Positions 14,364 to 63,336 are shown, counted from the stretch's first letter. The stretch is DNA of 64,000 nt from an uncultured delta proteobacterium (GCA_963699755.1 CAVOVB010000001.1:448001-512000); one strand, 5' to 3'. Notes: a model not told the origin generated them from the sequence alone. A program made the numbers and translations.

Positions 14364-14429
14364 CCCCCGTTCCATCCGAGCAAAGTTCGACATGGGCCGG
14401 GACGAAGGGGCTGAGAGGATCCATCAGCG

Positions 14430-14999: not shown

Positions 15000-15101
15000 G
15001 AGGAGAGCCTAACACGCGGGGCTATCTCTTTCGTTATGGATGGTCGGTTGGTAGCGACGGGCGAATAAGCCGGAGGCGTTGAGCGCAGCACGCGGGGCTT
15101 G

Positions 15102-15118
15102 AGACATCTGCGATGTCT
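15102..15118. promoter_or_regulatory. Palindromic operator-like site upstream of xis-int
   Basis: AGACATC-TGC-GATGTCT immediately followed by TACAAT. Confidence 0.35.
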
Positions 15119-15210
15119 TACAATCCCACTTCTTGTCGCTCGATGGCGTGCTCGTTTTTCAGCATTTTCTGCTCGCGCAACGTTTCGGCGGGCAAAACCG
15201 ACAACCATGT

Positions 15211-15624
15211 ATGGGGGACACGCCCGACTCATATCAACCGCACGCGAACGCTCGTGATCAAGAAGCCCAAAGAAGACCGGCTCTCGATTCGCCCCTGCTG
15301 ACAAGACACGAGGCAGCAGGGTATTGTCGCGTGGGGCTACGGACGTTTGATCGACGCGTGTCGCCGCATGTGCGGGCGCTCTCCATTGGCGCCCGCATCT
15401 TGTTTGACCGAAGGGATATCGATACATGGCTCGAAACTCAGAAGGATGGGCGCTCAGTCGAGATCGGCGCACCGGTGCCTACACGGTCCGCTTCACGCAT
15501 CGGGGCCGACGCCAACACCGATCCACGGGCGCTCGAGATCTTGCGGGAGCTAAGGTCGAGGCGGCGCGAATCTACGCCGAGACTGTTTTCGGTCGCCGGC
15601 TGCAAAACCGACAACGAGAACTGA
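15211..15624 (+). CDS. Excisionase-like HTH protein overlapping the integrase start
   Basis: LLTRHEAAGYCRVGLRTF...IGARILFDRRDIDTWL; start codon uncertain. Confidence 0.7.
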   Translation: MGDTPDSYQPHANARDQEAQRRPALDSPLLTRHEAAGYCRVGLRTFDRRVSPHVRALSIGARILFDRRDIDTWLETQKDGRSVEIGAPVPTRSASRIGADANTDPRALEILRELRSRRRESTPRLFSVAGCKTDNEN

Positions 15625-16634
15625 AAGCGCTCGATGTCTTGTTCGCCGAGTGGCTCGGTTAGATCGAGTCCGAGATCGCGCCCGAGACCTGGAAGACCTT
15701 TCGCGGCTACTGAGTGAACCACTTTTTACCCTTCTTCGAGTCGGCCGAGCGGCTGACCGTGAGCTCGGTCGAGGACTACAGCTGCATGCGCTTGCTGCAC
15801 GTCACGCGACCCACCGTGGCCAAGGAGCTCTCGGCGCTCCGAAACTTTCTGGGCTGGGCGGAGCGACGGGGCGAGATCGACGAAGCCCCCGTCGTTCGAA
15901 ACCCGCCCAGACGTTCAACCGGAACCGCCTTCGACGGAGGGAAACGGGACAAAGTCCGCGTGGCGCTCACCAGCGAGCAAGCCGAAGCAATTATCGACTT
16001 TCTCCCAGATCGAACCCCGGTGGCCGGCCACCCCATCAAGGCCCTGTTCACGGTCATCTGGGATACGAGCCTCCGCATCGGAACCATGTGGCGCCTCGAG
16101 GTCCCGAAGCACTACAAGCGCGGAGACGACGTGCTTCGGATCTCACAGGACATCGACAAATCGAGATACGCCCGGTCGCTCCCGCTGACCCCCCGCGCCC
16201 GCCGCGTGCTCGATGCGATCTGCGAGGACGAGGGCCTCATCTTCCACCACTTCGAGTACCGGCGGATTCTGGCCCAAGCCGCGCGCAAAGTGCTCGGCAC
16301 CGAGCACGAAGCAGTACACTTGAGCGCCCACGACTTCCGCCACGCCGCCCTCACGCACATGGCCGCCGTCGGCAGCGACCTCACCGCCATCGGCCACATC
16401 GCCGGCCACAAGAACGCAACCACCACCGCCCTCTACGTGCACAACTCGGAAGCTGCTGCACGCCGCGCAGTCGCTCGTCGAGCCGGAATTCTGGACACCA
16501 AAGTGGACACCGACGCCGGCCAAGCGGCCGAAAAGCGTCCAGTGGTACGACCTAAGTTTTCGGAATCATGGGTGGGCCATCCTGGACTCGAACCAGGAGC
16601 CAATGGATTAAGAATCCACTGCTCTACCACTTGA
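15426..16634 (+). pseudogene. Tyrosine integrase with two in-frame stops
   Basis: One frame from the arm-binding N-terminus (YTVRFTHRGRRQHRSTG) through TAG 15660 and TGA 15711 to the catalytic SLR, HDFRH, AGH and Y motifs. Confidence 0.85.
16492..16511 (+). promoter_or_regulatory. Putative integrase arm-type sites
   Basis: Tandem TGGACACC x2 about 60 bp from the tRNA-Lys 3' end. Confidence 0.5.
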
Positions 16635-16645
16635 GCTAATGGCCC
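16573..16645 (-). tRNA. tRNA-Lys(CTT)
   Basis: GGGCCATTAGCTCAAGTGGTAGAGCA..CTT..GGTTCGAGTCC..TGGCCCA; CCA not encoded. Confidence 0.95.
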
Positions 16646-48934: not shown

Positions 48935-49011
48935 TGGCGCGCCTGGAGGGACTCGAACCCCCGACCATCGGCTTAGAAGGCCACCGCTCTATCCAGCTGA
49001 GCTACAGGCGC
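48935..49011 (-). tRNA. tRNA-Arg(TCT), intact copy at the left att site
   Basis: GCGCCTGTAGCTCAGCTGGATAGAGC..TCT..GGTTCGAGTCC..GCGCGCCA. Confidence 0.95.
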
Positions 49012-49013
49012 GT
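48971..49013. repeat. att direct repeat, left (5' half of tRNA-Arg)
   Basis: gcttagaaggccaccgctctatccagctgagctacaggcgcgt, identical to 62751-62793. Confidence 0.95.
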
Positions 49014-49060
49014 AGGTTTTTCTGCGGTTTCATGGGCCCCCGTGGGACCCGTTTTCAGAC

Positions 49061-49078
49061 TGTAACGTATTTGTCTCA
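49061..49078 (+). promoter_or_regulatory. Putative integrase arm sites, left
   Basis: TGTAACG-N4-TGTCTCA matches TGTCACG-N4-TGTCTCG at 62638-62655. Confidence 0.5.
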
Positions 49079-49222
49079 GTCCCGAATTTTTCGCGGCGGT
49101 GCATCGGTGCGCCGCTTGCTCTGTTTAAACGTCGACGGCGGCCACCCTGCTACCGGTGTCCGCCGCCATTCATCGCCTGTTCCGGCCCCTTACCGTGACG
49201 GCGACCCCGAAAGGCCACCGAC

Positions 49223-50434
49223 ATGGTGCCTGCTTCATACATCGCGACACGATCGAGCGCAAGTCCTGAACCCGTAACGACCGAGTATGGTCAAGGCGTC
49301 CTCGACGGCATCGAGGAGGACATCCGCAACATCGACAAGAGCGAGGGAGACCACTACTCCCGACTCTTCGGCCGCATCGCGAAGCTTTGCAAGCACTGCA
49401 ACGGGGGCAGCATTGCGTGGCACGACGCGGAAGCGATGTTGTATGCGGTCGTCGAGGAGACTCGGCTCCGAACCCGGCACGAGCTCAAGAACGACATCCG
49501 AAGCGCCATGCGTCGCGTGGGTGACGAGGCGCTCCACCCGCCCGGAGAGAGCCGCGCCGCAGACAATGCCCCGCGCCTAGCACCGGAGCCTCCCGAGACG
49601 CCCTGGGCGGACCCGGTGGGCGTTCAGGCGCTTTGGGAAAGCACGGTCCCGATTGCGTTCGACGACGATGCTTATGCGTGGTCCACGCTGCGCGGGTTTG
49701 ACCATCGCGAAGCAGAGTTTCAGCGGCTGGCGCGGTTCATTCCTCGCCTCACTTCCGACGATCTGACGCCGGAGCAGGTCGAGGCCGTCAAGCGCGTGCT
49801 TCCCTCAGGGACCAAGCTCTGGGGCGAGTGGGGGCCGCCGCTTCGACTTGGTTATCGTGTCGCGCTCCCGACGTATGATGCCGACGGTGTCCTGCGGTCG
49901 CTTCGACTGCGGCTCGTCAACATCAAGCGCGGCACCGACGGCATTGCGAAGCTCCGCGAGCTCAAGTCGGGTGACAAGAAGTCGCTGAGCCTCCGTGGTC
50001 GCGCCAAGGGCGCCATCCTTGCCAACGCCGGAGCGCTCGAGCTCTTGCGGGGTAACCGACCTCGTGGGGAGTTCGTGGTCATCGTCGCCGAGGGCGAGAT
50101 GGATTTCCTGGTCCTCTCACTCGAGCCAGACGAGATCACGCGCTGCGTGTTCGGGCTTCCGGGCGAGGGCGCGTGGTCGTTCGACATTGCGAAAAAGATT
50201 CCGGGCGACGCCCGCGTTCTCATTGCGACCCATTCCGACAGCGCCGGCGAGGGATATGCGAAAGCGGTCCGAGCCACGCTCCCAGGACAAGGCCGGCTCG
50301 AACGCTGGCGACCGTGGTCGGTGGGCATGGAGGCGCTGAAGCAAGACCTCACGCCATACGCGGACGGTCGAAAACTCAAACATGACGTGGCGGACGTCCA
50401 CGGTCTTCGCGGGGGTGCGAGCAGTGGTTTCTGA
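49223..50434 (+). CDS. Toprim-domain primase with helical N-terminal domain
   Basis: ALW...RG, LPTYDADG..RSLR.R, IVAEGEMDF, THSDSAGEGY. Confidence 0.7.
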   Translation: MVPASYIATRSSASPEPVTTEYGQGVLDGIEEDIRNIDKSEGDHYSRLFGRIAKLCKHCNGGSIAWHDAEAMLYAVVEETRLRTRHELKNDIRSAMRRVGDEALHPPGESRAADNAPRLAPEPPETPWADPVGVQALWESTVPIAFDDDAYAWSTLRGFDHREAEFQRLARFIPRLTSDDLTPEQVEAVKRVLPSGTKLWGEWGPPLRLGYRVALPTYDADGVLRSLRLRLVNIKRGTDGIAKLRELKSGDKKSLSLRGRAKGAILANAGALELLRGNRPRGEFVVIVAEGEMDFLVLSLEPDEITRCVFGLPGEGAWSFDIAKKIPGDARVLIATHSDSAGEGYAKAVRATLPGQGRLERWRPWSVGMEALKQDLTPYADGRKLKHDVADVHGLRGGASSGF

Positions 50435-52013
50435 AGAACAGACAAGGCGCGCCGCCGAAGCGCGCAAGCGATTTGAAGAGGACCGGACGCCTGAGAACGA
50501 GCAGGCGTTTCGGGAGGCGGTCGAGGAGCTTCAAGGCAAGGCGCCACGCGTAGTCGACAAGCCGCTCACCGACCTGACCGAGGAGGGCGTGGCCGACTAC
50601 TTCGTCACCATGTTCGAGAACGAGCTCCGGCACGTTCCGAAGTTCGGCTGGTTCCAATGGGCCGACTCGCACTGGAAGCAAGACGAGACCGGCGAGGTCT
50701 ACGGGCACTTTCGAGAGGCCACCGCTCGACTTCGAAGACAGTGGGAGGCGATGCCGAAGAAGACCGACGAGCAGAAGGCCATGGCTAGGTCATTCGGCCA
50801 GTTCGTCTCTCGAATGCGATCTGCTCGGTCACACGACGCAGTGCTCAAGATTGCGTCTCGCGACCCGAGGCTCGTGATTCGTCCCGGTGACCTCGACCAG
50901 CAACCGACGCTACTTCCGTGCCTCAATGGGACGGTCGACCTCACGACCGGCGAGTTCCGCGAAGCAAGGCGCGAGGACTTGCTCAGCCGCGTGGTTCCCG
51001 TCGACTACGACCCGATGGCATCGGCCCCGGTTTTCGAGAAGTTCCTGCGACGCATCCAGCCCGAGCGGGAAATGCGCGACTTTCTCCAGCGTCTTCTCGG
51101 CTATGGTCTCTTCGGCTTCGTCCGAGAGCACGTGTTCCCCATCTTCTACGGCGACGGCGCCAACGGGAAGAGCGTGCTCGCGCAGGTCGTCCAGCACGTC
51201 GTCGGAGAGTACGCGCAGACGGTGCCGCGAACCTTGGTCGTCGAGACCCGAAACGAGCAACACAAGACCCAGATTGCGCGGCTTCATCGCACTCGAATGG
51301 GATTCATCCACGAGACCGAGCGAGACGCGAGGCTCAACGTCGAGGCCGTCAAGATGCTGACCGGAGGCGACGTGCTGACCGGCCACTTCATGCGAAAGGA
51401 CTTCTTCGACTTTGTGCCGAGTCACGCGCTCTATCTGCTCAGCAACTGGAAGCCCCAGGTCGACGCGGCGATGCGAGCGGTATGGCGACGCCTGTTGCTC
51501 GTGCCGTTCGATGTCGAGATTCCCATCGAGGAGCAAGACCTCTCGCTCGCCGACAGGATTATCAAAGAGGAGTCGGCGGGCGTCCTGCGTTGGCTCGTGG
51601 AAGGCGCCGCGTGGTGGTGGGTTTTCTCGCAGGTGCGTGACGGGAGCTCAGGGCTGCTTCCGCCGAAGCGCGTGATCGACGAGACGAAGGATTACCAGCT
51701 CCAAGAGGACATCGTCGGCCGGTTCATCGACGAGTGTTGCGACTTAGGCAATGGCCGAAAGGTTCAGGCCGGGAAGCTCTACACCGCATACAAGAGCTAC
51801 TGCCAGCGCGAGGGCATCGAGAAGCCCGCGACGAGCAACAAGTTTGCCGACGCCGTCCAGCGAGTGAAGGGTGCAGACGGTCGCCGCATCGGCAAGAGCG
51901 AGAAGGACTCAGTCGACGGGCGAAAGTATTACGACGGGGTCGGCCTCCACGCCTCAGCCGAGCGAGACCCTCGAGAGGTGCCCGACGACGACCCGGAGAA
52001 CTGGTCCTTCTAG
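50424..52013 (+). CDS. P4/D5-family SF3 helicase (phage/plasmid primase C-terminal type)
   Basis: NGTVDL.TGE, Walker A GDGANGKS, KMLTGGD, SNWKP, AVWRRL..VPF, C-terminal winged helix. Confidence 0.9.
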   Translation: MVSEEQTRRAAEARKRFEEDRTPENEQAFREAVEELQGKAPRVVDKPLTDLTEEGVADYFVTMFENELRHVPKFGWFQWADSHWKQDETGEVYGHFREATARLRRQWEAMPKKTDEQKAMARSFGQFVSRMRSARSHDAVLKIASRDPRLVIRPGDLDQQPTLLPCLNGTVDLTTGEFREARREDLLSRVVPVDYDPMASAPVFEKFLRRIQPEREMRDFLQRLLGYGLFGFVREHVFPIFYGDGANGKSVLAQVVQHVVGEYAQTVPRTLVVETRNEQHKTQIARLHRTRMGFIHETERDARLNVEAVKMLTGGDVLTGHFMRKDFFDFVPSHALYLLSNWKPQVDAAMRAVWRRLLLVPFDVEIPIEEQDLSLADRIIKEESAGVLRWLVEGAAWWWVFSQVRDGSSGLLPPKRVIDETKDYQLQEDIVGRFIDECCDLGNGRKVQAGKLYTAYKSYCQREGIEKPATSNKFADAVQRVKGADGRRIGKSEKDSVDGRKYYDGVGLHASAERDPREVPDDDPENWSF

Positions 52014-52129
52014 AGTTCCGCGCACCCGCCGCGCCCGCACGTCCCGAACCGTTTGTCACAAAACGGGGGTTGACAGAGTCCCTGTTTCAGGTGTGTCCTG
52101 GACATCCCCCGAGAGGAAGGAGTATCGCT

Positions 52130-53245
52130 ATGCGAGCTTTTGGCGCGGCGAGGACGGTCCCGTTGTTTCTTGCGGTTGTTGCTGCACTGACGATCGGTTG
52201 CAGCAGCGACGGCGGAGGCGGCAATGGTGACGGTGGCAGCGGTGGTACGGCTGGTTCTGGAGGTACGGCTGGCTCTGGTGGGAGTGCTGGAACCGGCGGA
52301 ACGGCGGGAACCGGCGGCACTGGAGGCACCGGTGCCACCGGAGGGACCGGTGGCACCGTATCCGGATGGATTTCACAAGATAGCGGCTTCGGGCACGATC
52401 TCCGGGCCGTGTCGTTCACCGATGCAAACACGGGGACGGCCGTGGGTGAATGGAATCTGATTTATCGGACGACCGATGGAGGCACGACGTGGACCACGCA
52501 GCCTAACCCAGCCCCCAATGTTGGCTTCCTCACTGGCGTGTCGTTTACCGATGCAAACACGGGGACGGCTGTGGGTTGGGATGGGCTCATTTTGCGGACG
52601 ACCGATGGGGGCACGACGTGGACCGAGCAAGATAGCGCCACCTTGGACTCGCTCTATGGTGTGTCGTTCACCGATGCGAACAACGGGACGGCCGTCGGTG
52701 CGAACGGGACCGTAGCATTGAGGACGACGGATGGGGGGGCCACGTGGACCATACAAAATCGCGGCGTGGGCGGGTGGGGCGTATCGTTCACTGATGCGAA
52801 CACAGGGACCGCCGTGGGCGTTGCCATTTGGCGGACGACCGACGGGGGGGCGACGTGGACCATGCAAGCCAGCCTCGCCCCCATGGTCGCCACCGGCGTC
52901 TTTCAAATCCCCGACATCCTCTATGGAGTGTCGTTCACCGATGCGAATAACGGAACGGCCGTCGGTGCGAGCGGGACCATAGTGCGGACGACCGATGGCG
53001 GGGCGACATGGACCGAGCAAGGTAGCGGGACCACGAACGACCTCAATGGCGTGTCGTTCACTGATCCGAACACAGGGACCGCCGTGGGCGACAGTGGGAC
53101 GATAGTGCGGACGACCGATGGCGGGGCGACGTGGACCGTGCAAAGCAGTGGCACCACCAACGACCTCTATGGCGTATCCTTCACTGATGCGACCACGGGG
53201 ACGGTAGTGGGCGACTTCGGGACCATCTTGCGGACGACTGACTGA
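52130..53245 (+). CDS. YCF48/BNR-repeat beta-propeller lipoprotein (cargo)
   Basis: Lipobox TIGC, Gly-rich linker, seven VSFTDxxxGTxVG...RTTD repeats. Confidence 0.85.
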   Translation: MRAFGAARTVPLFLAVVAALTIGCSSDGGGGNGDGGSGGTAGSGGTAGSGGSAGTGGTAGTGGTGGTGATGGTGGTVSGWISQDSGFGHDLRAVSFTDANTGTAVGEWNLIYRTTDGGTTWTTQPNPAPNVGFLTGVSFTDANTGTAVGWDGLILRTTDGGTTWTEQDSATLDSLYGVSFTDANNGTAVGANGTVALRTTDGGATWTIQNRGVGGWGVSFTDANTGTAVGVAIWRTTDGGATWTMQASLAPMVATGVFQIPDILYGVSFTDANNGTAVGASGTIVRTTDGGATWTEQGSGTTNDLNGVSFTDPNTGTAVGDSGTIVRTTDGGATWTVQSSGTTNDLYGVSFTDATTGTVVGDFGTILRTTD

Positions 53246-53287
53246 CTGCACCATGTGCGACGTCGGCGCGTTTGAGGCGCAGCCGTA

Positions 53288-53550
53288 GGAGACCAGGGCC
53301 TCCAAGGTGTCCGGAGGGTCTCCGGTGAGGTAACTTGCTGGAATAACTTGCTTTTGTACTTGCCACCCAAAGCGCCACCGGAGACTACGGAGACGTTGCG
53401 GGGTTGTAAACTCTACATGGTTTTCTCTCTCGTGCGTGAGTGCTAACTGAGCAAAGGTATCCGTAGTCTCCGGTCAGAACAGAAACTGCTGCGTTTTGCG
53501 CCCTAAAAGTACCGGATACCTTGCCTCCAGGGGTCTCCGTAGGTCTCCGG
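53288..53550. repeat. Iteron-like putative replication origin
   Basis: Multiple CGGA(G/T)AC units in both orientations; 15-bp inverted repeat 53377-53391/53460-53474 around a lower-GC spacer. Confidence 0.65.
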
Positions 53551-54025
53551 GAATTGACCATACATATCCATTACCGCTGTAGAGGTCGCACTAGGAGTGC
53601 ACGGGTAGGTAACACCAACCGTTTTCCACGCCTGGCACCTCTCGCGCTTGGGTAAGGAGGGAGCGACAGTGACCGGCAAGTGGCTCTATAGGCCAACCGT
53701 CACCGTCTCGACGGCGCTGTGATTGCGGATACTTAGCGCTCAGCTTCCGGCATCTTCCCGCCGACTGTCACGCCAGTGTCCCCTCGAGAGCAAAAGTGGC
53801 CATACACGACCCCCACGGTGCCATAGGTAACCCCTGCTCGGAGCGGCCGGCCGAGCCCTCTGCGGTCCGCAAAATTCTCAGTCCTAGATTTCGACTTGGA
53901 ACAATTGCACAGAATTTTGCAGCGCGTAGGCCCAAAGTAAGCTGCATATTCCCAGGGAGTGCTATACTCGAGCCATCGGTGTGGTGGTCACCTCCCCACG
54001 CCCGGGCCCTGGGTCGGTCCGTCAT

Positions 54026-54346
54026 TCAGCCGACCTGGGGCGCCTTTCTATTCGCGCAGTAGCAACTCCGGCAGCGCTGAGACCGGCCCTGGACGATGTC
54101 GTTCAAGTAGCGGGCGTAGACGTTGCCGCAGCTGACGCAGAAGACCTCGATGGTGGTCAGCTTGTCCCAGGCGTTCTTGCGGTAGGGCTCGGAGACGACC
54201 TCCCAGCCCGTGACCCGGCCGTACTTGTCGACGATGCGTTCACCGAAGCGGATGGTTCGCCAGTTGCGAGCTCGGCGCTGATGCTTGCTCGGTGTGCGCT
54301 CTACGCCCTTCCAGAGCCACCGTACGGCCATGCTCGAGCCTACCAT
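54026..54346 (-). CDS. Small zinc-ribbon phage-type protein
   Basis: CVSCGN...G.S.RCRSC. Confidence 0.5.
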   Translation of the reverse strand: MVGSSMAVRWLWKGVERTPSKHQRRARNWRTIRFGERIVDKYGRVTGWEVVSEPYRKNAWDKLTTIEVFCVSCGNVYARYLNDIVQGRSQRCRSCYCANRKAPQVG

Positions 54347-54550
54347 GGCTCCGGCATCATCTCAGCCTTGAAATAGCCTCAAATGGCGCTGTACGGGCTT
54401 GCAGTCCCTGTTATAGTAGCGGCAGGCTGGTTTTGATATCCCTGGCCGAGCTCGAGCCGCTTTGGTTTCATGGGGCGGCTCGAGCGACTGATGACCCCGA
54501 GCAGTGCTTCTCGCTTGTCGCTGCTCGTGGGCCATCGCTAACCCCGACCG

Positions 54551-54811
54551 ATGTGCAGTCACTTCTCGGCTTTCTGGCATCAGACTGAGCTCACGCGGAA
54601 AGAGCAGGAGAACAACCACGGCTCGATTAGCGGGCACTCCAAGGGGCTGAGTGTCATCGGTTCGCCGGGTCCAAAGTTCGTGCGGCTCGAGCGCTATTGG
54701 AAACGCGAACCGAAGGACGCAGGGCCGTGTCCGCATTGCGGCGAACCCGATCGGTGGAAGTGCTGGTCCAAGACGAGGAGACTCGAGCTCTTCGGAATGG
54801 GTCGTCGATGA
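54551..54811 (+). CDS. Small hypothetical protein with CxxC
   Basis: CPHCG; ATGA overlap with a short hydrophobic ORF at 54808-54912. Confidence 0.35.
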   Translation: MCSHFSAFWHQTELTRKEQENNHGSISGHSKGLSVIGSPGPKFVRLERYWKREPKDAGPCPHCGEPDRWKCWSKTRRLELFGMGRR

Positions 54812-54929
54812 ACGACGGGGACGAGGCAGGTGACGCGCTCCGACTGCTGGCGGTCCTGTTGTGGTGGGCGGCTGCGATTGCGGCAGCGTTCGCGACTGCT
54901 CTGCTCTGGTGAGCTCGAGCGCTGAGCAT

Positions 54930-54982
54930 AAAAATGCCCTCGACGGCTCCCAGGAGAAGCAACCGTCGAGGGCTTTGCGTTT
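54930..54982. terminator. Probable bidirectional intrinsic terminator
   Basis: aaaaat-gccctcgacgg...ccgtcgagggc-tttgcgttt between convergent units. Confidence 0.6.
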
Positions 54983-55182
54983 CGACGCCGTTAGGATCGC
55001 ACAGCGGCGTGCTCAGTCAACCGTCGCGAATGGGGAGCGATGCGCCTACCCGGGGAAAGGAGGCTAACCCTGGCAGGCGGTCGCTCGTAACTGCTGAACG
55101 GAAAAGCGACAACGTGAGCGCACTTCCGGAAAAATTCGTCGCTCGAGGATGCGCTGTAAGGCCCGCAAATGTTTTCCAGGTC

Positions 55183-55413
55183 CTAGGCATCGTCCGAATT
55201 CCGAGGCGCTGAGAACTCGTCGGCCAAACCAATCGCAATCACCGAACCGACGACTTTCCAGCACACGCGACGGTCGCCGACCTCGAGCTCGCAGAGACGC
55301 TTGTCCCCGGACTCGAAGTCGGCGCGCTCCACCACGAGGCGAAACACATCCATCCGGTCGAGTGCGTCGAGCGCCTTGATACCGGGGGAGAGCCGCGCCT
55401 TGATGTCACTCAT
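55183..55413 (-). CDS. Hypothetical protein
   Basis: ATGA-coupled last gene of the leftward operon. Confidence 0.5.
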   Translation of the reverse strand: MSDIKARLSPGIKALDALDRMDVFRLVVERADFESGDKRLCELEVGDRRVCWKVVGSVIAIGLADEFSAPRNSDDA

Positions 55414-56453
55414 GGCTGCGCTCGCTGACGCTTCCACTCAAGGAACTCGGCCTGCTCGCGTTGCCATTCGCGGTAGAGGTCCCATCCGACGCGGTTTTCG
55501 TGCATGGACTGAAGCGCGGCGGTGCCGCTCTCGGCCGTGGCGCAGGAATAAAGGTGGTACGGGCCATCCGTTTCGAGTCGGGGGTCATCGAGCCAAACCA
55601 AGACGAGCGGCTCGTCTCGCCCGTATGCGTCCCTGTTGCGCACCTCGATCTGTTTCAGCGTGGCGACCCTGCCGTTGGCGTAAGAGCGTCCGTAGTCCGG
55701 CACAACGGCGCCGACGCGAAGTTCCGCAGCGCTGAACCTGTAGCTGATGTCGTTCGGCAGCCCGTGGACCAGTAACCCTTCCGCGATGACACTGTGTCCA
55801 CGCCAGTTGCCGAGCGGCATAGAGGCGATGCGGCGCTCCATGTCTGGGTCCATCGACGGCGGGTCGTTGAGACCCGTGCCCCACTGGGTGTAGACCGCAT
55901 CGAGGTTCGCTCGGCGGTATTGGTGGCAATCCTTCCTGCGCGGGTTCGGGTAGTGCTCGACTCTCGTCTGGTTCCAGTGGGCAATCGTGACCTCGATAGG
56001 CGGCTCGTCCTCGTACTGCCCCGGGAGCGGTCGCCAGTAGGCATAGAACCCGCCACACGGCTTTCTCGTTCCGAGCAACTCGGACTTGACCGCGTGTGCT
56101 TCGTAGACCGGGCTGTGCCGGATCTTGCGCCCCTTCACACGTTCGCCAATCTCGAGGAAGTGCGGGTGCTTCTGCGTGCCACCCGAGTCGATGTGGACAC
56201 CGCCCGTCTGCGTGCGCGGCTTCGCTCTTGGGTAGAAGCTGCTCGCCGCGACCACGTCACCCGGCTTGATTGGATCTTCATCCTCGGCAAGCCAGCCAAG
56301 CTCGCGACAGGCGCTCTCCCAGTTCCCGAACTCATCTCGGCCGACCTTGCCGAGAACCCGAGTTTCCCACTCGTCATCCGCATCGTGCTGTATCTTTTGA
56401 ACCACCTGCCCGGTCGGGTTCAGCACGCAGACGTAATGTCGTTGCATTACCAT
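55410..56453 (-). CDS. Hypothetical protein
   Basis: Long ORF in the tightly packed leftward operon. Confidence 0.6.
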   Translation of the reverse strand: MVMQRHYVCVLNPTGQVVQKIQHDADDEWETRVLGKVGRDEFGNWESACRELGWLAEDEDPIKPGDVVAASSFYPRAKPRTQTGGVHIDSGGTQKHPHFLEIGERVKGRKIRHSPVYEAHAVKSELLGTRKPCGGFYAYWRPLPGQYEDEPPIEVTIAHWNQTRVEHYPNPRRKDCHQYRRANLDAVYTQWGTGLNDPPSMDPDMERRIASMPLGNWRGHSVIAEGLLVHGLPNDISYRFSAAELRVGAVVPDYGRSYANGRVATLKQIEVRNRDAYGRDEPLVLVWLDDPRLETDGPYHLYSCATAESGTAALQSMHENRVGWDLYREWQREQAEFLEWKRQRAQP

Positions 56454-56455
56454 CT

Positions 56456-56671
56456 TCAAATACCTTTCCGGGCCGCCGGCGTGCGCACGTAGGTGGGGTC
56501 CCACTTGCCTACCACCAACGAACCTTCGTAGTCGCCGTCCTCGGTGCCAAACCAGACTTCATGCACGCCGTCTTGAATTGGGTCTATGTGGGTGACGACC
56601 ACTAGGCCGCCCTGTTCATGGAAGAAAACATCGTCTTCCTTCAACTCGTACAGCTTCTTTTCCATTTTCAC
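56456..56671 (-). CDS. Small beta-rich hypothetical protein
   Basis: AAGGAG ribosome-binding site; operon position. Confidence 0.55.
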   Translation of the reverse strand: MKMEKKLYELKEDDVFFHEQGGLVVVTHIDPIQDGVHEVWFGTEDGDYEGSLVVGKWDPTYVRTPAARKGI

Positions 56672-56733
56672 TCCTTTCCGAACCCGGCCGCCGCAGAGGC
56701 ACCATTGCCTCCACGACGGCGAGCTCTGTTACA

Positions 56734-57129
56734 TCAAAACGGAATGCTGTCCTCGTCGGCGAGAACGTGCGCTCCGGCCGGTGCCGGCTTCGGCGCCCGG
56801 CTCCGCACCCTAATGGCGCTCTTGAGCTCACTGCCCACTGCCACCTCGGCCTTGAAGAGCGCGACGCTTTGGCCCTTCCACGCCTCCGGCTCACCTGAGC
56901 CGATGAGCGCCTTGATGGTCCTCACGTTGGTCTTATTCAGAACCCAGCGGGTCGGGCCGCCCGGCACCAACGGCGCCGCCAACTTCACGACCGGCTTCTT
57001 CTGAGAAGTCCCGTCCCGTTGGTCGAGCATCTCGACGCCGACCGACTCGATGACTGCGACGACGTCGCCGGAGTCCGGCAAGTCGACCGAGCTGATGAAT
57101 TTTCGTTCGAATGTGCTTTCAATGTCCAT
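56734..57129 (-). CDS. Putative phage-type single-stranded DNA-binding protein
   Basis: Beta-rich body with LNKTN, Pro/Ala linker, acidic tail DEDSIPF. Confidence 0.6.
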   Translation of the reverse strand: MDIESTFERKFISSVDLPDSGDVVAVIESVGVEMLDQRDGTSQKKPVVKLAAPLVPGGPTRWVLNKTNVRTIKALIGSGEPEAWKGQSVALFKAEVAVGSELKSAIRVRSRAPKPAPAGAHVLADEDSIPF

Positions 57130-57160
57130 TTTCAGTTTCCCTGTCAGTTGAGTTTCAATT

Positions 57161-57376
57161 TCAGCCGGATGATTCCGGCAGAGTCTTGACGCGGCTCACG
57201 AGGTCGACCTCGACGCTCGAATCGAACGTGCGAGACCGGACCTCGCGGCCGTCTTCGTAAATGACCTCGACGTCTCCCGCGTCGGTGACGACGGCGTCCA
57301 TCGCCGCGCAGCACTCGACGAGCTCGTAATCGAAGACGAACCGGTCGCCGGTGCGGAGCCGGGCAATCATCATCAC
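57161..57376 (-). CDS. Small beta-rich hypothetical protein
   Basis: Overlap-coupled to the upstream gene. Confidence 0.5.
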   Translation of the reverse strand: MMMIARLRTGDRFVFDYELVECCAAMDAVVTDAGDVEVIYEDGREVRSRTFDSSVEVDLVSRVKTLPESSG

Positions 57377-58404
57377 TCGATCTCCTCTTGAAGCTGGTCG
57401 ATGAGTTCGCTCACGCGCTGCATCGGCTCTTCGATGTCGTCCTGGCGCTCTGCCCAGATGTCAGCGTCGATGTGCTCTGCGATGGCAGCTCGGATGATGT
57501 CGCGCAGAGCAATCTCATTGGTGGCAGTGAGCGCATTCAACTCCACCATGTCTGGTCCGTACCGGTCGATGTACTCTTGAATTTTGCTGTTCTGCCCCTT
57601 CTGCTGCGCGCTGAGGCTGCGTCCGGTGTGCATCTTGTCGTAAGCGCTTTCCATCGGGAGGTTGCGCTCCCTGGCTTGCTCCAGCGTGATGGCGACTCTG
57701 GTCACCGAGTCGACCTCGGCAACGTCGCGCACCCACCGGGCATCCATCCCAACGCCCTGCATGTCGTGGTCGCCCGCATAGAGGACGACGGGCTCCTGAC
57801 CCCCGTCACGCACCCGACGACACCAGTGCCCCACGTTCAGCTTCTGCCGGATGGACGCGTCACCCCCGGTGCAGAGAAAGTCGGTGCGCGTGCGGCCGCA
57901 GGCGTTTTCAACGATGCTGCGCAAGCCCAGCTTCTCGCAAAGGACGAGGGCTCGCACGGCCTGCCCTTCCCAGGGGTCCAGTCTCAGTTGCGGGATGCTG
58001 TGCGCCCAGTCGTCCACATCGTCGTGGAAGCTCCACCCCCGGATATCGTGGTCGCCGTCATCGTCGAGCAGGTCTGGGTCGAAGGCGTCGGGTCCACGGT
58101 CTCCAGCAAGCCACTTTTTCCGAGCTGTGATGAGAGTGTTTACAACCCATGTGCCCCAGAGCACCTGTTTCTTCGTGCCGTCCGGGTTCTCGGTTTTGTA
58201 GTCCGGCTCGATGAAGCTCCAGGGTTTGTCGCGGAGGTAGTAGTAGCAGTCGCGCACGCCGGGCGGCCCCAGAACGCGAGCTTCGCTGTAGTCTCTCACC
58301 CACTGGAGAAACTGCCGCCGCTCCTCGTCGGTGACTTGGATGACGAGTTTGCCTTTCTGGATAACCAGAATTTCGTCCTGCGGACGTGGCGTGACGGGGG
58401 TCAT
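57373..58404 (-). CDS. Topo VI subunit A / Spo11-like (Mini-A-type) protein
   Basis: VRDCYY winged-helix motif, LCEK, GGDAS, YAGDHDMQG (DxD), RVAITLEQ, VELNAL. Confidence 0.7.
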   Translation of the reverse strand: MTPVTPRPQDEILVIQKGKLVIQVTDEERRQFLQWVRDYSEARVLGPPGVRDCYYYLRDKPWSFIEPDYKTENPDGTKKQVLWGTWVVNTLITARKKWLAGDRGPDAFDPDLLDDDGDHDIRGWSFHDDVDDWAHSIPQLRLDPWEGQAVRALVLCEKLGLRSIVENACGRTRTDFLCTGGDASIRQKLNVGHWCRRVRDGGQEPVVLYAGDHDMQGVGMDARWVRDVAEVDSVTRVAITLEQARERNLPMESAYDKMHTGRSLSAQQKGQNSKIQEYIDRYGPDMVELNALTATNEIALRDIIRAAIAEHIDADIWAERQDDIEEPMQRVSELIDQLQEEIE

Positions 58405-58925
58405 GACAGCACCTCGCCTCGAATTCGTTCCCGGACTCGCGCCGTTGCGCCGGGGGCGAGTTTCCACATGGGCGGCACTGCGACCGGGCTCGGGTCGTAG
58501 AAAATGGCCGTGTCGCCCTCGGCCCACGAGAGCCCTCGGCACATCAGTCCCGGCGGCACAACGATGCCGCGCTGCGGTCGACTCATCTGTCCCGAGGAGC
58601 AGTCAATCGTCCAGCCCTTGCTGCGAACCACAAGATGACCGTGGAGCCCCGGCGACTGGTCCGGCATGTCGTGGCGAACAGCAACGGTCCACGCATCGTC
58701 CGGCATCGGGTCGACGGGCTCGGGGGACGTCTGCACCCACTCGCACCACGCACGATTCGCGGCGGTGCAATCCATGACCGCGAGCGAGGCTGGGATTCCG
58801 TGTTCGCGCAGCACCTCGAAGGCGTGGTAGCTGGCCGGAATGCAAACATCCTGTTGTGCGTATTCCTCGACCACGATTCCGGGAAGCCGCTCAACGATTC
58901 GGCTGTACAGCTCGCTGCGCCTCAT
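58401..58925 (-). CDS. Transglutaminase/papain-fold protein
   Basis: DVCIPAS...HGHLVV...TIDCS gives Cys-His-Asp order and spacing. Confidence 0.55.
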   Translation of the reverse strand: MRRSELYSRIVERLPGIVVEEYAQQDVCIPASYHAFEVLREHGIPASLAVMDCTAANRAWCEWVQTSPEPVDPMPDDAWTVAVRHDMPDQSPGLHGHLVVRSKGWTIDCSSGQMSRPQRGIVVPPGLMCRGLSWAEGDTAIFYDPSPVAVPPMWKLAPGATARVRERIRGEVLS

Positions 58926-59272
58926 GACAGCCGCCCCATCCACTCCGCCCATTCGGACATCCGGCTCGCGAGTATCTCCAGATGCAAGGCCATGAGTCCT
59001 CGCATCGAGCCCGGTCGCTGACCTTCTTCGTCCCACGGCAGAATCCGCTCGAAGAAATCCGCGAGCTGTCGTTCGTTCTCTTCCGTCTGATCGCGAACCA
59101 GCGTGCTCCACTTGTCGCAGAACTGTTCAATGCGCTCTGGCCGTGAGAGCCACGCCAAGCGAGCGGCGCACCGCGGGCAGTGTTCGTTGAACGGCATCTC
59201 CCATGCCCGGCGACGGCCCTCGACAGAGCAGCGCTCGCAGCCAGGCAGCTCCCTCGGATACCGGCGACTCAT
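58922..59272 (-). CDS. Hypothetical protein with two CxxC motifs
   Basis: CERC, CPRC; ATGA coupling on both sides. Confidence 0.55.
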   Translation of the reverse strand: MSRRYPRELPGCERCSVEGRRRAWEMPFNEHCPRCAARLAWLSRPERIEQFCDKWSTLVRDQTEENERQLADFFERILPWDEEGQRPGSMRGLMALHLEILASRMSEWAEWMGRLS

Positions 59273-59484
59273 GACGCCCGCCTCAGCTGAGCGCGGACCC
59301 ATCGGCCAGCGAACCGGAGCTCGAACTCGACCCATTCGCCGAGACCAGCGACCCGCCTGCGGGCCTCGAAGAACCTCTCGGCGTCCTCGCGATACCGGAA
59401 CGGCCGGACCGCCATCGTGCCGTGAATCGGATTGTGGACGACCACTCGCCACGGCGCCTCGCTCGCAACCCCTTGCTTTCTCAT
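59269..59484 (-). CDS. Hypothetical protein, first gene of the leftward operon
   Basis: AAGGAGG ribosome-binding site, ATGA coupling. Confidence 0.55.
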   Translation of the reverse strand: MRKQGVASEAPWRVVVHNPIHGTMAVRPFRYREDAERFFEARRRVAGLGEWVEFELRFAGRWVRAQLRRAS

Positions 59485-59635
59485 GCCTCCTTGCCTTTCT
59501 GCGCCCTGGCCCGGGGCCTCAGCGCAATCCCAGAATAGACCCATGTCCTCCTTTGTCAACCTAACGGGTGGACAAGTACGGCGGTGCGCGCTACGGTGTT
59601 GGCTATGGACGGCGAATTGCGCGACACTGGGGCCC

Positions 59636-60052
59636 ATGGCGGGGAAGAAGACCTCCATCTATCTGACCGACGAGGACTCGGCGCGGCTGGATGCGGTGCA
59701 CGAGGCGATGCGGACGGCTCCGAACCTCCGGCAGTTCGATCTGAAGTGGAGCGACACGCTTCGACTTCTCTTGCGCCAAGCGCTCCAAGTGGCCGAGCTC
59801 GAGTACCTGCACAAAATTCCCGAGGACGCCGACGCAGAGGAGTGGCTCGATGCGCTCAAGGAAGAGCATCGGAAGCAGTCCGCGATTTTGCGAGCCCTTG
59901 TCGACGAGGGCTGGGCGGAATCGAAGCTGACGACGGGTGGACGGCGCTGGCTTTCGAAGGACGGCCGGGTCTCATTGGAGCCGCAGCCGGAGGCGCTCCC
60001 AAAGAAGCGCCGCTCAACAAAGAAGGATCCGAAGAAGAACGACCGGGAGTGA
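59636..60052 (+). CDS. Ribbon-helix-helix regulator
   Basis: KTSIYLTDEDSARLD...WSDTLRLLLRQAL. Confidence 0.6.
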   Translation: MAGKKTSIYLTDEDSARLDAVHEAMRTAPNLRQFDLKWSDTLRLLLRQALQVAELEYLHKIPEDADAEEWLDALKEEHRKQSAILRALVDEGWAESKLTTGGRRWLSKDGRVSLEPQPEALPKKRRSTKKDPKKNDRE

Positions 60053-60080
60053 CGGCGTCGCTCCTTGATAGGAGCAACGT

Positions 60081-60314
60081 ATGAACGGACACGAAACGAA
60101 CCCCCAGGTCGCCTTCCGGGCACCGCGCACGCTGATCAGGCGGCTCGACCGTCTCAGCAAGGCGCTTCAGAAGAGCGAGGGAATTCCCGCAAGGCGAAGC
60201 GTCGTCATTCGACGTGCCGTGCTGGCAGGTCTGCCGCACCTCGAGGACGAAGCGCTCAGTCTGCTCACCGACGAGCTCGGCCGTCACCCCGACGTTGACG
60301 AGGTGTCGCCGTGA
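60081..60314 (+). CDS. Ribbon-helix-helix (CopG/Arc-like) regulator
   Basis: VAFRAPRTLIRRLD...RSVVIRRAV; AGGAG ribosome-binding site. Confidence 0.65.
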   Translation: MNGHETNPQVAFRAPRTLIRRLDRLSKALQKSEGIPARRSVVIRRAVLAGLPHLEDEALSLLTDELGRHPDVDEVSP

Positions 60315-60715
60315 TCAAGCTAACCAAGTGCGAGCCACGCACCACCCGAGACGGATTCGCGCCCACCAACCGCGAGGCGCCCAGCAACAAAACTTACGAA
60401 AGAAAAAGTATGACCATCGAACAACGGCGAGACGCCGACATCGTGCGCCAATGCGGGGAAACCACCGCCATCAAGAAACAGTACATGGACGCGCAAGAGC
60501 AACGCACGATCGACGCAGCAGTAGGAAAAGTCCGGGCTGCTATCAAGAGCCTGGAGGCGAGGATCGACGCCCTCGAAGCACGGCAGGCGAAAGCACGGCA
60601 GGACGCACGCCTCGGACCACTCAGGGCTTACTTCAGCCGACCCGTGAAAGCCTACGAGCTCGACGAAACAGCGAGCCTACTCCGCCGTTACCCCATTTTT
60701 GGAGATCGACCATGA
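60311..60715 (+). CDS. Hypothetical coiled-coil protein
   Basis: GTGA and ATGA coupling. Confidence 0.5.
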   Translation: MIKLTKCEPRTTRDGFAPTNREAPSNKTYERKSMTIEQRRDADIVRQCGETTAIKKQYMDAQEQRTIDAAVGKVRAAIKSLEARIDALEARQAKARQDARLGPLRAYFSRPVKAYELDETASLLRRYPIFGDRP

Positions 60716-61410
60716 GCCATTTGTATACACAGCCGCGAACGCCCGAAGAGGACATGGAGCTCCGGCTCCGTGATCTCGAGGAACACGACTACGCACTGCT
60801 TCGAGCGGCCAAAGCGGCGGGTGCCCGCGTCGTGACCCGGGCTGGCATGTACGTGATTCTCAACCCCGAGGTGATGGGTCTCGAAGCTCCCGCCCCGGAC
60901 GACGAGCAACCCACGTTCCGGCTGCCCCAGATCCATAGGCGCGACGTGTACCTTCCCCTGGAAGACCGAACGCTGACCGCGAGGGCCTTCACCGATCCAT
61001 GCCGCAAGACGCCGAAGAAAGCGATCGAGTTCATGGCCAAGTGCACGCGGACTCCGGTCCTGCCGAGATTCACCGCGGTGCGGACGAACGATCATCTCGC
61101 CGTTGGCGCGACCGAGCCCCTGGCACTCGACGCGCTGGGTGCAACTCCAGGCGACACGGTTCAAGCGCTGCTCATCGACTGCGACAGCGAGCGGCTCGCG
61201 ATGCAGATCGCCGAAGAGCAACGCGACGGCCTCCCGTGGTCAGGGGACCTCGAGATCGGTTCGACGGGCCGCTTGCCGTTCGGATGGCACGGACAGCGAT
61301 TGACCCCCGAAGAGATGAGCGCACGCGACCATCAGGTCCGGGTGGACCGCGCTGCCAAGCGGGCACGACGCGACAAAGTCATCCGTCAAATGCAGAGGGA
61401 GCCGCTGTGA
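60712..61410 (+). CDS. Hypothetical protein
   Basis: GGAG ribosome-binding site, coupled on both sides. Confidence 0.55.
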   Translation: MSHLYTQPRTPEEDMELRLRDLEEHDYALLRAAKAAGARVVTRAGMYVILNPEVMGLEAPAPDDEQPTFRLPQIHRRDVYLPLEDRTLTARAFTDPCRKTPKKAIEFMAKCTRTPVLPRFTAVRTNDHLAVGATEPLALDALGATPGDTVQALLIDCDSERLAMQIAEEQRDGLPWSGDLEIGSTGRLPFGWHGQRLTPEEMSARDHQVRVDRAAKRARRDKVIRQMQREPL

Positions 61411-61733
61411 CTGACGAGCGGCGATACGGAGGATGGAAGGACGTGGCCAACTACTTCGGCATCGGCCGAGAGTCCGCCTACGACCTGTGCAGGGCCCATT
61501 CCTGGGCGGAGAAGCACGCCGGTAAGTGGCTGGTGAATCTCGCTCGGATGCGCGAGTGGGGCGATTTTGGAAGGCATGGAGTGTGGCAAAACGAGTCTAC
61601 AAGCGGGGAAGTGTCTGGTGGGGCGACTTCCGTGCTCTCGGCGGGAAGCAAGAGTCGCTTGGCGTCACGAGCAAGGCGTCGGCCCTCGTCAGATACAATG
61701 AGCGCGAGCTGGCGCTCAGTGAACGCCGACTAG
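61407..61733 (+). CDS. Excisionase-like HTH protein overlapping the integrase start
   Basis: GWKDVANYFGIGRESAYDL...GKWLV. Confidence 0.65.
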   Translation: MTDERRYGGWKDVANYFGIGRESAYDLCRAHSWAEKHAGKWLVNLARMREWGDFGRHGVWQNESTSGEVSGGATSVLSAGSKSRLASRARRRPSSDTMSASWRSVNAD

Positions 61734-62701
61734 GACCGCTTCCCCTCGGGATGGTGCTGACGTTTGCGCTCGAGGCGAAGAAGCGTCGGGCCAAGGCCCA
61801 CGGTCGCGATGTCGAGAAGACACTCAGGACCGGCCGCCAGCATTGCGAAGTGCTCGAGCGTCACCTCGGAGACCTCGGTCTCGACTTCAACGACCCGCAC
61901 CTTTCGCTCGAGGGCGTGGGCGAGGACTTCCTCGACAAGCGCACCGCCGACGAGACCAACAAGGGAACGACGGTGACGCCGCACACGGCGCTCAAGAACC
62001 TCAAGACGCTGTCCCAGGGACTTCGTGAGGCGCGCAAGCGCAAGTGCTTCGAGGGCGAACCGAGCGAGGTCATCCCGGAGTTCCTGACCGATGGTGCCGT
62101 CTACACTCCATCGGACCGCTGGCTCACGGCGGACGAGTTCGACGCGATGTTCAGCAAAGCGCCCGAGCAGCGCCGCAAAGACTTCGTGTTGGGCGTCGAG
62201 ACGGGCGCAGACCACGGCGAGCTCGAGAAGGTGGACAAGGCTCTCCATGTCGACCTCTCGACCGTGCGAGGCCCCCAAGGTGCCATACGACTGCCGGCGA
62301 CCAAGACCGAAGAGCGCGACCGCTGGATTCCGTTGAGCGTCGCAGCGCGCAAGGCCGTCGACGAGTGTCTCGCCGAAGAGGGCGATTACCTCGTGACGCC
62401 GTGGGCCAACTTCAAGCGCGACATGGCGAACCCATGCAAGCGCGCCGGCGTCGTGCCCTTCATCTGGAAAGACATTCGCCGCACGTTCGCGAGCCGTTGC
62501 GCGCAAGCGGGCGTGCCCGAGTTCTGGACGGTGAAGCTCATGGGCCACCGCGACAGCAAGATGATTCGTCGCGTCTATGCGCGTCTTTCGCCGGGAACCT
62601 ACACCGAGGCCATCAAGCGACTCGAGACGATTCCGTATGTCACGCCAGTGTCTCGTGGCGACATCGTCGAGCTCAGCAACTACAGGGAAAACCCTGCATG
62701 A
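61583..62701 (+). CDS. Tyrosine integrase
   Basis: VYKRGSVWW arm-binding start, TKT..R.R.IPL, DIRRTFAS, LMGH, RVY; ends 50 bp from the att repeat. Confidence 0.9.
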   Translation: MAKRVYKRGSVWWGDFRALGGKQESLGVTSKASALVRYNERELALSERRLGPLPLGMVLTFALEAKKRRAKAHGRDVEKTLRTGRQHCEVLERHLGDLGLDFNDPHLSLEGVGEDFLDKRTADETNKGTTVTPHTALKNLKTLSQGLREARKRKCFEGEPSEVIPEFLTDGAVYTPSDRWLTADEFDAMFSKAPEQRRKDFVLGVETGADHGELEKVDKALHVDLSTVRGPQGAIRLPATKTEERDRWIPLSVAARKAVDECLAEEGDYLVTPWANFKRDMANPCKRAGVVPFIWKDIRRTFASRCAQAGVPEFWTVKLMGHRDSKMIRRVYARLSPGTYTEAIKRLETIPYVTPVSRGDIVELSNYRENPA

Positions 62702-62750
62702 CTCAGGAAGCCATGGTGCAGAAACCCCTTATTCAAAACGACGCTGTATT

Positions 62751-62793
62751 GCTTAGAAGGCCACCGCTCTATCCAGCTGAGCTACAGGCGCGT
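62751..62793. repeat. att direct repeat, right (displaced 5' half of tRNA-Arg)
   Basis: Identical to 48971-49013; no T-arm or 3' acceptor strand adjacent. Confidence 0.95.
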
Positions 62794-62898: not shown

Positions 62899-63336
62899 CT
62901 AGGCGGCCGACCCAGCAAGTCCGAGCGCGACCCGTATATCTCGCAACACGCTCTTCTCGACTGACTTGATGCGTCCGTCCGCAGAGGCTGCGATCTCGGC
63001 GGCACCCATGACGAGCTCCGCGTGTTTCGCAACGCCCTTGGCGCGGGCCACACAGCTCAGCGCAAGGCGCGTTCCGTCTTCGGGATCGGAGAGCATGACT
63101 TCAGACAAGTCACCGAAGGCTTGGGAGAGCTCGTCGAAATCGATTCTGGGGAAGACATCGGCCTTGGAAGCCAAGGTCTCGAGAAAACGATCTGCCTCTG
63201 CTTTGGTGAGCTCGCCGTCCGAGGCGGCCACCAACACAAACGCACCGGCCACCGCTCGCAGCAGGCCCGGCGGAACATGATCGTCAAAACGCTGCCATGC
63301 TGCGAGCGCGTAGGCGACTGACTCTTCTGGGATCAT
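62899..63336 (-). CDS. TerB-like protein
   Basis: LVAASDGELTKAE...IAASADGRIKSVE..L..I..ALGL. Confidence 0.8.
   Translation of the reverse strand: MIPEESVAYALAAWQRFDDHVPPGLLRAVAGAFVLVAASDGELTKAEADRFLETLASKADVFPRIDFDELSQAFGDLSEVMLSDPEDGTRLALSCVARAKGVAKHAELVMGAAEIAASADGRIKSVEKSVLRDIRVALGLAGSAA

Follow-up and report, generated by a model that had tools for sequence, protein, structure and literature searches.

The tRNA-Arg(TCT) island and its integration

A stretch of 64,000 nucleotides from an uncultured delta proteobacterium (GCA_963699755.1 CAVOVB010000001.1:448001-512000), here called the window, contains an integrated 13.8-kb island without detectable virion genes. The island is bounded by exact 43-bp direct repeats at 48971-49013 and 62751-62793 (spacing 13,780), as a preliminary description, made from the window's sequence alone, had stated. 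An intact tRNA-Arg(TCT) gene (48935..49011, minus strand) overlaps the left repeat. It is the only copy among the 55 tRNAs predicted by ARAGORN in the source genome (G000; 5.35 Mb in 11 contigs, 100% complete, 9% contamination). The 43-bp core of the left attachment (att) site (48971..49013) corresponds to tRNA positions -2 to 41, the 5' half through the anticodon loop. This half of the gene and the DNA upstream of it are now island-derived: the left arm (49014..49222), which contains a weak terminator-like hairpin on the plus strand (49095-49116), stands in place of the host tRNA promoter. The right att site (62751..62793) is the displaced tRNA-Arg 5' half, preceded by a conserved host promoter motif (62794 onward, minus strand). 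Rfam gave no match besides the tRNA.

Empty tRNA-Arg sites, which the preliminary description had proposed to look for in relatives, were found in G010 and G007. In both genomes the two flanking host genes lie directly beside the tRNA, within about 200-230 bp of each other. The heptamer CGTGCTA was present just 5' of tRNA-Arg in nine of 14 relatives' loci, as a variant in two and absent from three. In G000 it precedes the displaced 5' fragment at the right end instead of the intact tRNA. Integration thus took place in the 5' configuration, and the upstream region on which the tRNA relies is island DNA. Judged from these loci, the single-copy tRNA-Arg(TCT) appears to be cut off from its host promoter by the integration. 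According to the accessible part of PMC4383910, the 5' configuration is known but rare in Islander (159 of 3919 islands), and tRNA islands have a modal size of 13.6 kb. The 5'-tDNA-fragment islands of the same source share with the present one an anticodon-centred att site and a displaced 5' fragment upstream of the gene. Here, however, a 36%-identical integrase from G043 uses the ordinary 3' configuration at tRNA-Glu, pointing to a 3' fragment that starts at the anticodon loop. This start point suggests that the integrase clade likely uses the loop in both orientations.

Further tRNA-associated islands and fragments were observed. A second 5'-fragment island in the source genome (G000:C1:1567453-1588836, L085-L086; 21 kb) occupies tRNA-Leu TAG and stands back to back with a 3' island of 7 kb. 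MOBP relaxase and NikA-like genes are present in both, though a PF02534 model that matched in control genomes detected no coupling protein in G000. G003 (contig C28, L026) may retain the scar of a 5'-type island that has since been lost: a 55-nt 5' fragment of tRNA-Arg lies ~190 bp upstream of the intact gene. The candidate relic arms on the upstream side of tRNA-Arg in G002 and G013 contained neither a 5' fragment nor element genes. Positions 1-16645 of the window form the right end of a 55.6-kb tRNA-Lys island (G000:C1:408923-464645; integrase 15714-16634) with many insertion sequence remnants upstream. An ORF (open reading frame) at 62899-63336, between the right att site and an oxidoreductase gene, lies outside the 13.8-kb island and is absent at the G010 and G007 site. 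The preliminary description had called the host myxobacterium-like. The relatives' records carry only the label Deltaproteobacteria and do not confirm Myxococcota, which is our presumption.

Scans of all 21 island ORFs with Pfam, PHROGs, NCBIfam and PADLOC revealed no family of virion, terminase, relaxase or type IV secretion system (T4SS) proteins, in agreement with the earlier remark that no capsid, terminase, tail, relaxase or T4SS gene was recognised. The lone exception is o134, whose coiled coil weakly matches a head-protein PHROG (E 0.004). TerS was detected in none of the 21 ORFs by the library that detects it in islands of G020 and G054. Equally, the island ORFs contained no Psu, delta, Sid or epsilon family, no cf-PICI TerL, portal, capsid or head-tail connector/adaptor, and no partition gene. 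The relaxase or T4SS gene expected of an integrative mobilizable or conjugative element was likewise not found in the island; Pfam does find relaxases in other G000 islands.

The right end encodes a tyrosine integrase of 372 aa (61583..62701, plus strand; PF00589 9e-6, phrog_1 1e-24), which also scored above cut-off in a whole-genome profile scan. Its start is overlapped by an excisionase/AlpA-like HTH_17 ORF in xis position (61407..61733, plus strand; PF12728 E 8e-4, below cut-off). The HTH_17 profile, counted as AlpA by the PICMI model, had gone unmentioned before. Asp210 and Lys296 of the integrase, invariant in 8/8 aligned sequences, occupy what we take to be the canonical first Arg and His positions. 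Their invariance suggests that the clade has an altered, non-canonical active site rather than a decayed one. The Asp also occurs in a 36% homolog of G022.

A conserved core in capsid-less islands of one genus

The operon that ends with xis and int begins with two small regulators (59636..60314, plus strand). The first shares 40% identity over 50 aa with a regulator of a sister island in G000, and the second has homologs in G011 and G062. Assignment of the first to JetA (PADLOC, E 0.003) was weak and was rejected. The regulators are followed by the coiled-coil-like o134 (60311..60715, plus strand; tblastn matches in G062, G051 and G023) and by o232 (60712..61410, plus strand), which has an invariant LP..WH motif and is the best family marker. 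No Pfam, PHROG or PDB sequence match was found for o232. Another core gene, o86, encodes a CxxC zinc-ribbon protein (54551..54811, plus strand) and was detected in 5/54 other genomes of the genus, in none of 33 other genomes of the taxonomic family, and in G051 in addition. A short hydrophobic ORF without family match, o34 (54808..54912, plus strand), overlaps its end.

Six of the 54 other genus genomes carry o232, compared with 0/33 other family genomes. A profile search in a class-wide draw recovered it from five of 19 genus genomes and from none of 381 others. Overall o232 was found in eight other genomes (G011, G013, G019, G023, G051, G062, G063 and G064), and among the genomes searched the family appears to occur solely in one genus of sediment bacteria. 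The o86 gene shares an island with o232 in G011, G013, G051 and G062 and lies on separate islands in G063 and G020; ORFs similarly placed to o134 in G011 and G064 were matched by eye only. Both att ends were located in three members: 12.2 kb at tRNA-Glu (G011), 5.8 kb at tRNA-Asp (G013) and 11.5 kb at tRNA-Val (G023). The G051 and G062 copies look like relics, and o232 is frameshifted in G062.

The replication genes differ between these islands: Prim-Pol and D5 in G011, Dam and DUF3987 in G064, DNA polymerase and a clamp-like gene on contig C7 of G063, and a Rep initiator in G023. No replication gene was detected in the 5.8-kb member of G013. Head, packaging and tail PHROGs were not found among the scanned ORFs of the o232 islands, which came from our own codon-score caller, a tool that can miss genes (it missed the primase of the window). 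The family keeps o232, usually with o86, o134 and a small regulator, and exchanges integrases, tRNA targets, replication genes and cargo. The existence of related islands in eight other genus genomes agrees with the earlier proposal of an undescribed capsid-less integrative family. No description of islands of this kind in the host group was found in a literature search that did not cover most subscription papers and supplements, and the family is probably undescribed. Two small capsid-less islands in G063 (C7, L155; C10, L158) have their own DNA polymerase (phrog_17) together with a clamp-like or an exonuclease VIII gene.

The island in the window has its own replication set-up at the left end. 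The first ORF (403 aa; 49223..50434, plus strand) likely encodes a TOPRIM-type primase, as suggested by Toprim_4 (E 0.05, Pfam), ESM Atlas TOPRIM-primase clusters (0.90-0.94 but with low feature counts) and coding-frame bias. It is followed by a P4/D5-type superfamily 3 (SF3) helicase of 543 aa (50382..52013, plus strand). The helicase reached 262 bits with TIGR01613, against a cut-off of 108.7, passed D5_N as well, matches Pox_D5, and has a 91%-identical homolog in G044. Downstream lies a block of inverted GGA(G/T)AC repeats (iterons; 53279..53556), the predicted replication origin. Nine hexamers fall in 53281-53560, an interval chosen post hoc, and none of 19,104 fixed 280-bp tiles of the genome had at least eight. 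The helicase and the iterons of the primase-helicase-iteron core described earlier are therefore well founded, and the primase only weakly so.

Between helicase and iterons lies a gene that the preliminary description had passed over. It encodes a BNR/Ycf48-type beta-propeller protein, likely a lipoprotein (52130..53245, plus strand; PSII_BNR 3e-27). In G044 the helicase homolog is followed by an unrelated 143-aa gene, then by a counterpart of the iteron block (82% over 279 nt) and by a second conserved block. Helicase and iterons stay together while the gene between them is exchanged, which is what an origin plus a cargo slot would do. The leftward operon described below was not seen on the G044 contig (genome 85% complete, 930 contigs). 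The second conserved block (53893..54049, plus strand; 75% over 157 nt in G044) is non-coding and consists of an extended -10-like box followed by a hairpin that is strong in folding predictions. It had no Rfam match and is a candidate small RNA. At 53893-54049 and at L121:1542-1697 the box and a hairpin containing CACCTCCC, which is anti-Shine-Dalgarno-like, were both observed; the candidate antisense RNA overlaps the 3' end of o106. A weak additional match lies in the G023 island. The repeat at 53250-53289, after the lipoprotein gene, was considered as an attC-like site and rejected, being the coding tail of a common host protein family. Cargo slots of the genus, at many loci, nearly always end in this short tail (CDVGAFEVQP-stop), either in frame or reduced to a remnant, and it is a possible recombination handle for cargo exchange.

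A non-coding motif of ~70 nt (55144..55214, plus strand) connects the island to capsid-bearing kin. It is 81% identical in the sister island (G000:C1:125695-136531, L048), and these are its only two places in G000. The sister is a 10.7-kb island at tRNA-Ser with a confirmed att repeat and a protease-capsid gene (6e-130), and its order is the same as in the window: att-primase-helicase-cargo-...-motif-regulator-...-xis-int. A profile of the two copies, run on 181 loci (1.27 Mb), found a third copy (E 2.6e-4), which immediately precedes the regulator-orf-o232-int operon of G064, and gave no match on the reversed loci. The exact motif was absent from GTDB contigs and was not found in 87 genomes of the taxonomic family at up to three mismatches. 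It may be a packaging, transfer or regulatory site, and its presence in a capsid-bearing island makes it a candidate packaging site in particular.

The motif could also be read as an oriT mimic nicked in trans, which would make the island a relaxase-less mobilisable element with RHH-like (ribbon-helix-helix-like) proteins as relaxosome accessories. An accessory gene beside oriT is the usual oriT-mobC layout, and in the sister and G064 islands the motif does immediately precede an RHH-like gene; MOBP relaxase and NikA genes are available on other islands of G000. However, those relaxase islands lack the motif, the PF02534 coupling protein was not found in the genome, and a capsid-bearing island has little need of an oriT. 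We regard this explanation as highly improbable.

Islands beyond the o232 family extend the picture. TerS and capsid genes were found on an island of G020 whose helicase is 38% identical, and TerS on one of G054. Gene content thus points to a continuum of capsid-bearing, TerS-bearing and capsid-less islands within the genus, comparable to that of tycheposons in the available text of bioRxiv 10.1101/2020.12.28.424599. The G020 island (G020:C1:5.8-15.4 kb, L015) is PICI-like and lies at tRNA-Asp; besides TerS it has protease-capsid genes, and its helicase is interrupted by stops.

The leftward operon and the deleted-prophage alternative

Between the 70-nt motif and the regulators, a position that reads as an insertion into the family backbone, lies an operon on the minus strand. 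Its genes are mostly coupled, as noted earlier: 5/8 junctions are 4-bp overlaps. A sigma-70-like promoter in the divergent control region (59532..59559, minus strand) has 10/12 consensus matches; two such sites were found against 1.3 expected, which is weak alone. The first genes are o116, with two CxxC motifs, and o71b (58922..59484). They are followed by a protein with an invariant Cys28-His97-Asp108 triad (58401..58925), a Topo VI-A/Spo11-like protein (57373..58404), o71 (57161..57376), an ORF called SSB-like (single-stranded DNA-binding-like; 56734..57129) and o76, o347 and o69 (55183..56665). The Cys-rich o106 (54026..54346, minus strand) has a weak match to an HNH-associated PHROG. Judged by homology, o347 and the Cys-His-Asp protein are real genes. 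The former is an orphan with a single 77% homolog, and its ESM Atlas scores, only 0.76, were uninformative. The Cys-His-Asp residues are invariant in 4/4 sequences, which sustains this part of the earlier claim; no family or structure match was found, and likeness to papain or transglutaminase is our assumption. The SSB-like label, given for an acidic C-terminal tail, and the RHH label of the two regulators, given by eye, both go by sequence motifs. Neither was confirmed by any HMM (hidden Markov model), the regulators having no RHH Pfam match. The SSB-like ORF matched only phrog_21613 (6e-7; function unknown) and Vibrio phage proteins annotated as hypothetical or coil-containing.

The Topo VI-A/Spo11-like assignment was corroborated by both fold and catalytic motifs. 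The modelled structure (predicted local distance difference test score 90.6) had 1d3y as top Foldseek match (E 5.6e-7), and the fold fits Topo VI A better than a C. glutamicum nuclease or Spo11. The protein has an RxxYY motif with Y55, E157, D212xD214xxG217 and a VELNAL box. In an alignment of 86 sequences R51 and Y55 are nearly invariant, E157, D212 and G217 are invariant, and the T2BI box has the consensus WELDAL. The retained RxxYY, E and DxDxxG motifs and this consensus place it, as far as sequence and model indicate, in the Mini-A family of PMC7671362. In the available part of that source, Mini-A is a described family of phages and mobile genetic elements, from phages and proviruses. The shared features are a 5Y-CAP plus TOPRIM fold, the RxxYY tyrosine, E and DxDxxG, and a B subunit that is not nearby; library scans of the island ORFs likewise detected no GHKL B subunit. 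The island protein differs in that its VELNAL box lies between WELDAL of Mini-A and RVELNAM of Topo VIII, and in its capsid-less setting. It is a divergent stand-alone member of a small subfamily (seven representatives at E<=1e-30), and a BFVD fold search gave a single unnamed match (E 8e-4).

Mini-A relatives were present in eight of 400 genomes of the order, and seven of the eight neighbourhoods were scanned. Five were integrase-bearing islands with a replication initiator, DnaC-like or D5 gene adjoining or near, one of them with TerL and one with a head protease; the other two were uninformative. Mini-A in a small island is therefore not unique. The TerL- and head-protease-bearing examples are 15-16.5-kb islands at tRNA-Leu (G132:C181, L126; G230:C157, L130) that combine Mini-A and a replication initiator with a lone TerL or head protease.

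These features bear on whether the island is a deleted or cryptic prophage in which an early region (Mini-A, SSB-like protein, small coupled ORFs), the replication genes and the integrase remain. The leftward operon does resemble a phage early region, Mini-A was described from phages and proviruses in the part of PMC7671362 noted above, the SSB-like protein has homologs in Vibrio phages, and the G132 and G230 islands retain a TerL or head protease gene. Against this, all examined ORFs are intact, no virion remnants were seen, and the three att-bounded relatives (5.8-12.2 kb) share the core without detected virion genes. Moreover, replication modules in the o232 islands are exchanged, not decayed; at least four other replication set-ups and swapped cargo argue against a deleted prophage. 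The preliminary description had held that virion modules in homologous elements would indicate one. Such modules were not detected in the o232 islands and occur in part in the wider kin, where protease-capsid genes, TerS or both (sister island, G020) support a satellite instead. The prophage explanation, already weakened, is rather improbable, and the leftward operon is better regarded, on its position and content, as a putative accessory block of phage-early type outside the family core.

Mode of transfer and relation to known elements

Under the SatelliteFinder definitions in the accessible part of PMC10085698, no more than three of the five PICI components can be counted in the island, and hallmarks of P4 and cf-PICI are missing. 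The integrase and the primase-replicase (TIGR01613) are present, and the AlpA/MerR/Stl component may be represented by the HTH_17 match in xis position, under cut-off. TerS is missing, as is capsid morphogenesis save the coiled-coil match of o134 (E 0.004). Three components correspond to a 'type C' level, which the authors treat as ambiguous in that text. Size, integrase and the P4-alpha-type helicase domain are PICI/P4-like. In contrast to such elements as the source presents them, neither TerS and capsid-morphogenesis genes nor Psu, delta, Sid and epsilon were detected, primase and helicase are separate ORFs, and the replication genes lie across attP from the integrase. The island also resembles PICMI of Vibrionaceae (PMC10803314, available part), which combine an integrase, an HTH_17/AlpA-type regulator and a primase and have no capsid-remodelling gene. 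The helicase matches DUF5906 (PF19263) and the xis product PF12728; the two are markers of the PICMI model, and each match is under the curated cut-off. Unlike PICMI, the island lies in tRNA-Arg and not beside fis, is twice the size, and has a divergent RHH-like control region, the Mini-A operon and the conserved o86, o134 and o232. PICMI and VEIME concatemers are packaged in helper virions according to the accessible parts of PMC10803314 and PMC9618062, whereas the island is known from assembled sequence alone.

Tycheposons (bioRxiv 10.1101/2020.12.28.424599) and VEIMEs (PMC9618062), as far as the available texts describe them, share tRNA-targeting tyrosine integrases, interchangeable replication modules, and the coexistence of cargo-carrying and capsid/TerS-carrying types in one host group. 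The island has the tycheposon combination of such an integrase, a replication module and cargo. It differs in host group, in 5'-half integration and in core genes without family match, and the likeness is one of gene content. On these comparisons, the best reading is that the island would work like PICMI, VEIME or tycheposon elements but falls outside PICI, P4 and cf-PICI. Its gene set is less exotic than first described: Mini-A is a described family, integrase, HTH_17 and primase are PICMI or 'type C PICI' markers, and 13.6 kb is the modal size in Islander. The island is a real and genus-restricted variant of capsid-less integrative hitchhikers, and a probably undescribed one.

We propose, with a probability of roughly one half (about 0.52), that it is a self-replicating, helper-dependent hitchhiker that excises, is copied as a circle and spreads in the capsids of a helper phage, the latter being the inferred transfer vehicle. 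The divergent RHH-like regulators would keep the island quiet. On induction, Xis and Int would excise a circle of 13,780 bp, in which primase-helicase would follow the integrase, on one strand, at a distance of 301 bp; this may couple replication to excision, although a weak hairpin lies between. Primase, helicase, SSB-like protein and Mini-A could then support replication from the island's own predicted origin. The o86, o134 and o232 proteins and the 70-nt motif would engage the helper, and the lipoprotein slot would ferry host-type genes.

Several results weigh against this proposal. The island ORFs include no detected TerS, capsid-morphogenesis or Psu/Sid-like gene. Three Pfam models that matched in control genomes found no terminase in G000, where a resident helper is thus not shown. 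The motif is not family-wide: in G011, G013, G023, G051, G062 and G063 the surroundings of o232 gave no match to it. Nor was o232 found in the capsid-bearing islands, and the searches assigned no function to o86, o134 or o232. The integrase lacks two canonical catalytic residues, and its predicted activity is unproven. Four sequencing runs were compared as assembled contigs, which drop rare forms. Two runs of one study, which may be the source, matched at ~99-100%, and their depth was 2-5 both within the island and beyond it. Two from other studies contained pieces of 88-98% identity, among them the integrase end plus 30 nt of att core. Neither an attP nor an empty-attB joint was seen in these contigs, which cannot exclude them, and island depth was about equal to that of the flanks. 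Searches of IMG/VR with Mini-A, the integrase (single and aligned), the helicase, the Cys-His-Asp alignment and the motif yielded no relative, and JGI metagenomes gave no match with the integrase and Cys-His-Asp alignments; both collections may lack near relatives.

Some of these observations would fit a phage-independent integrative replicon of the cargo-tycheposon or integrative-plasmid type, which moves by vesicles, transformation or cell contact and uses the conserved genes for maintenance or regulation. No packaging gene was detected in any o232 island, cargo is freely swapped and no terminase was found in G000. In the available text of bioRxiv 10.1101/2020.12.28.424599, cargo tycheposons share replication modules with PICI-like ones, yet occur in vesicles and not in the phage fraction. 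On the other hand, motif, regulator and layout are common to a capsid-bearing island, and no partition gene was detected. We consider phage-independent spread unlikely and prefer the helper-dependent hitchhiker.

More tentatively, o134-o232, with the zinc-ribbon o86, may possibly form a helper-hijacking or DNA-transfer module outside Pfam, PHROGs and PDB that defines a satellite family in at least five replicons. For most small integrase islands the means of transfer is not known; here the candidates come down to three or four conserved genes and a single cis motif against a background of freely swapped replicons and cargo, which makes the hitchhiking step testable. More than the Mini-A operon stressed earlier, it is the unexplained core genes, the takeover of the tRNA at its 5' side and the odd integrase that make the island interesting. 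The island offers a natural case in which an element takes over expression of a single-copy tRNA through 5' integration; it also presents a clade of integrases whose active site is non-canonical, and Mini-A outside a phage. If the proposal is true, the module would plug into at least five different replicons and persist even in a 5.8-kb member in which no replication genes were detected, and a packaging-site-like motif would be common to the family and to capsid-making satellites of the same host.

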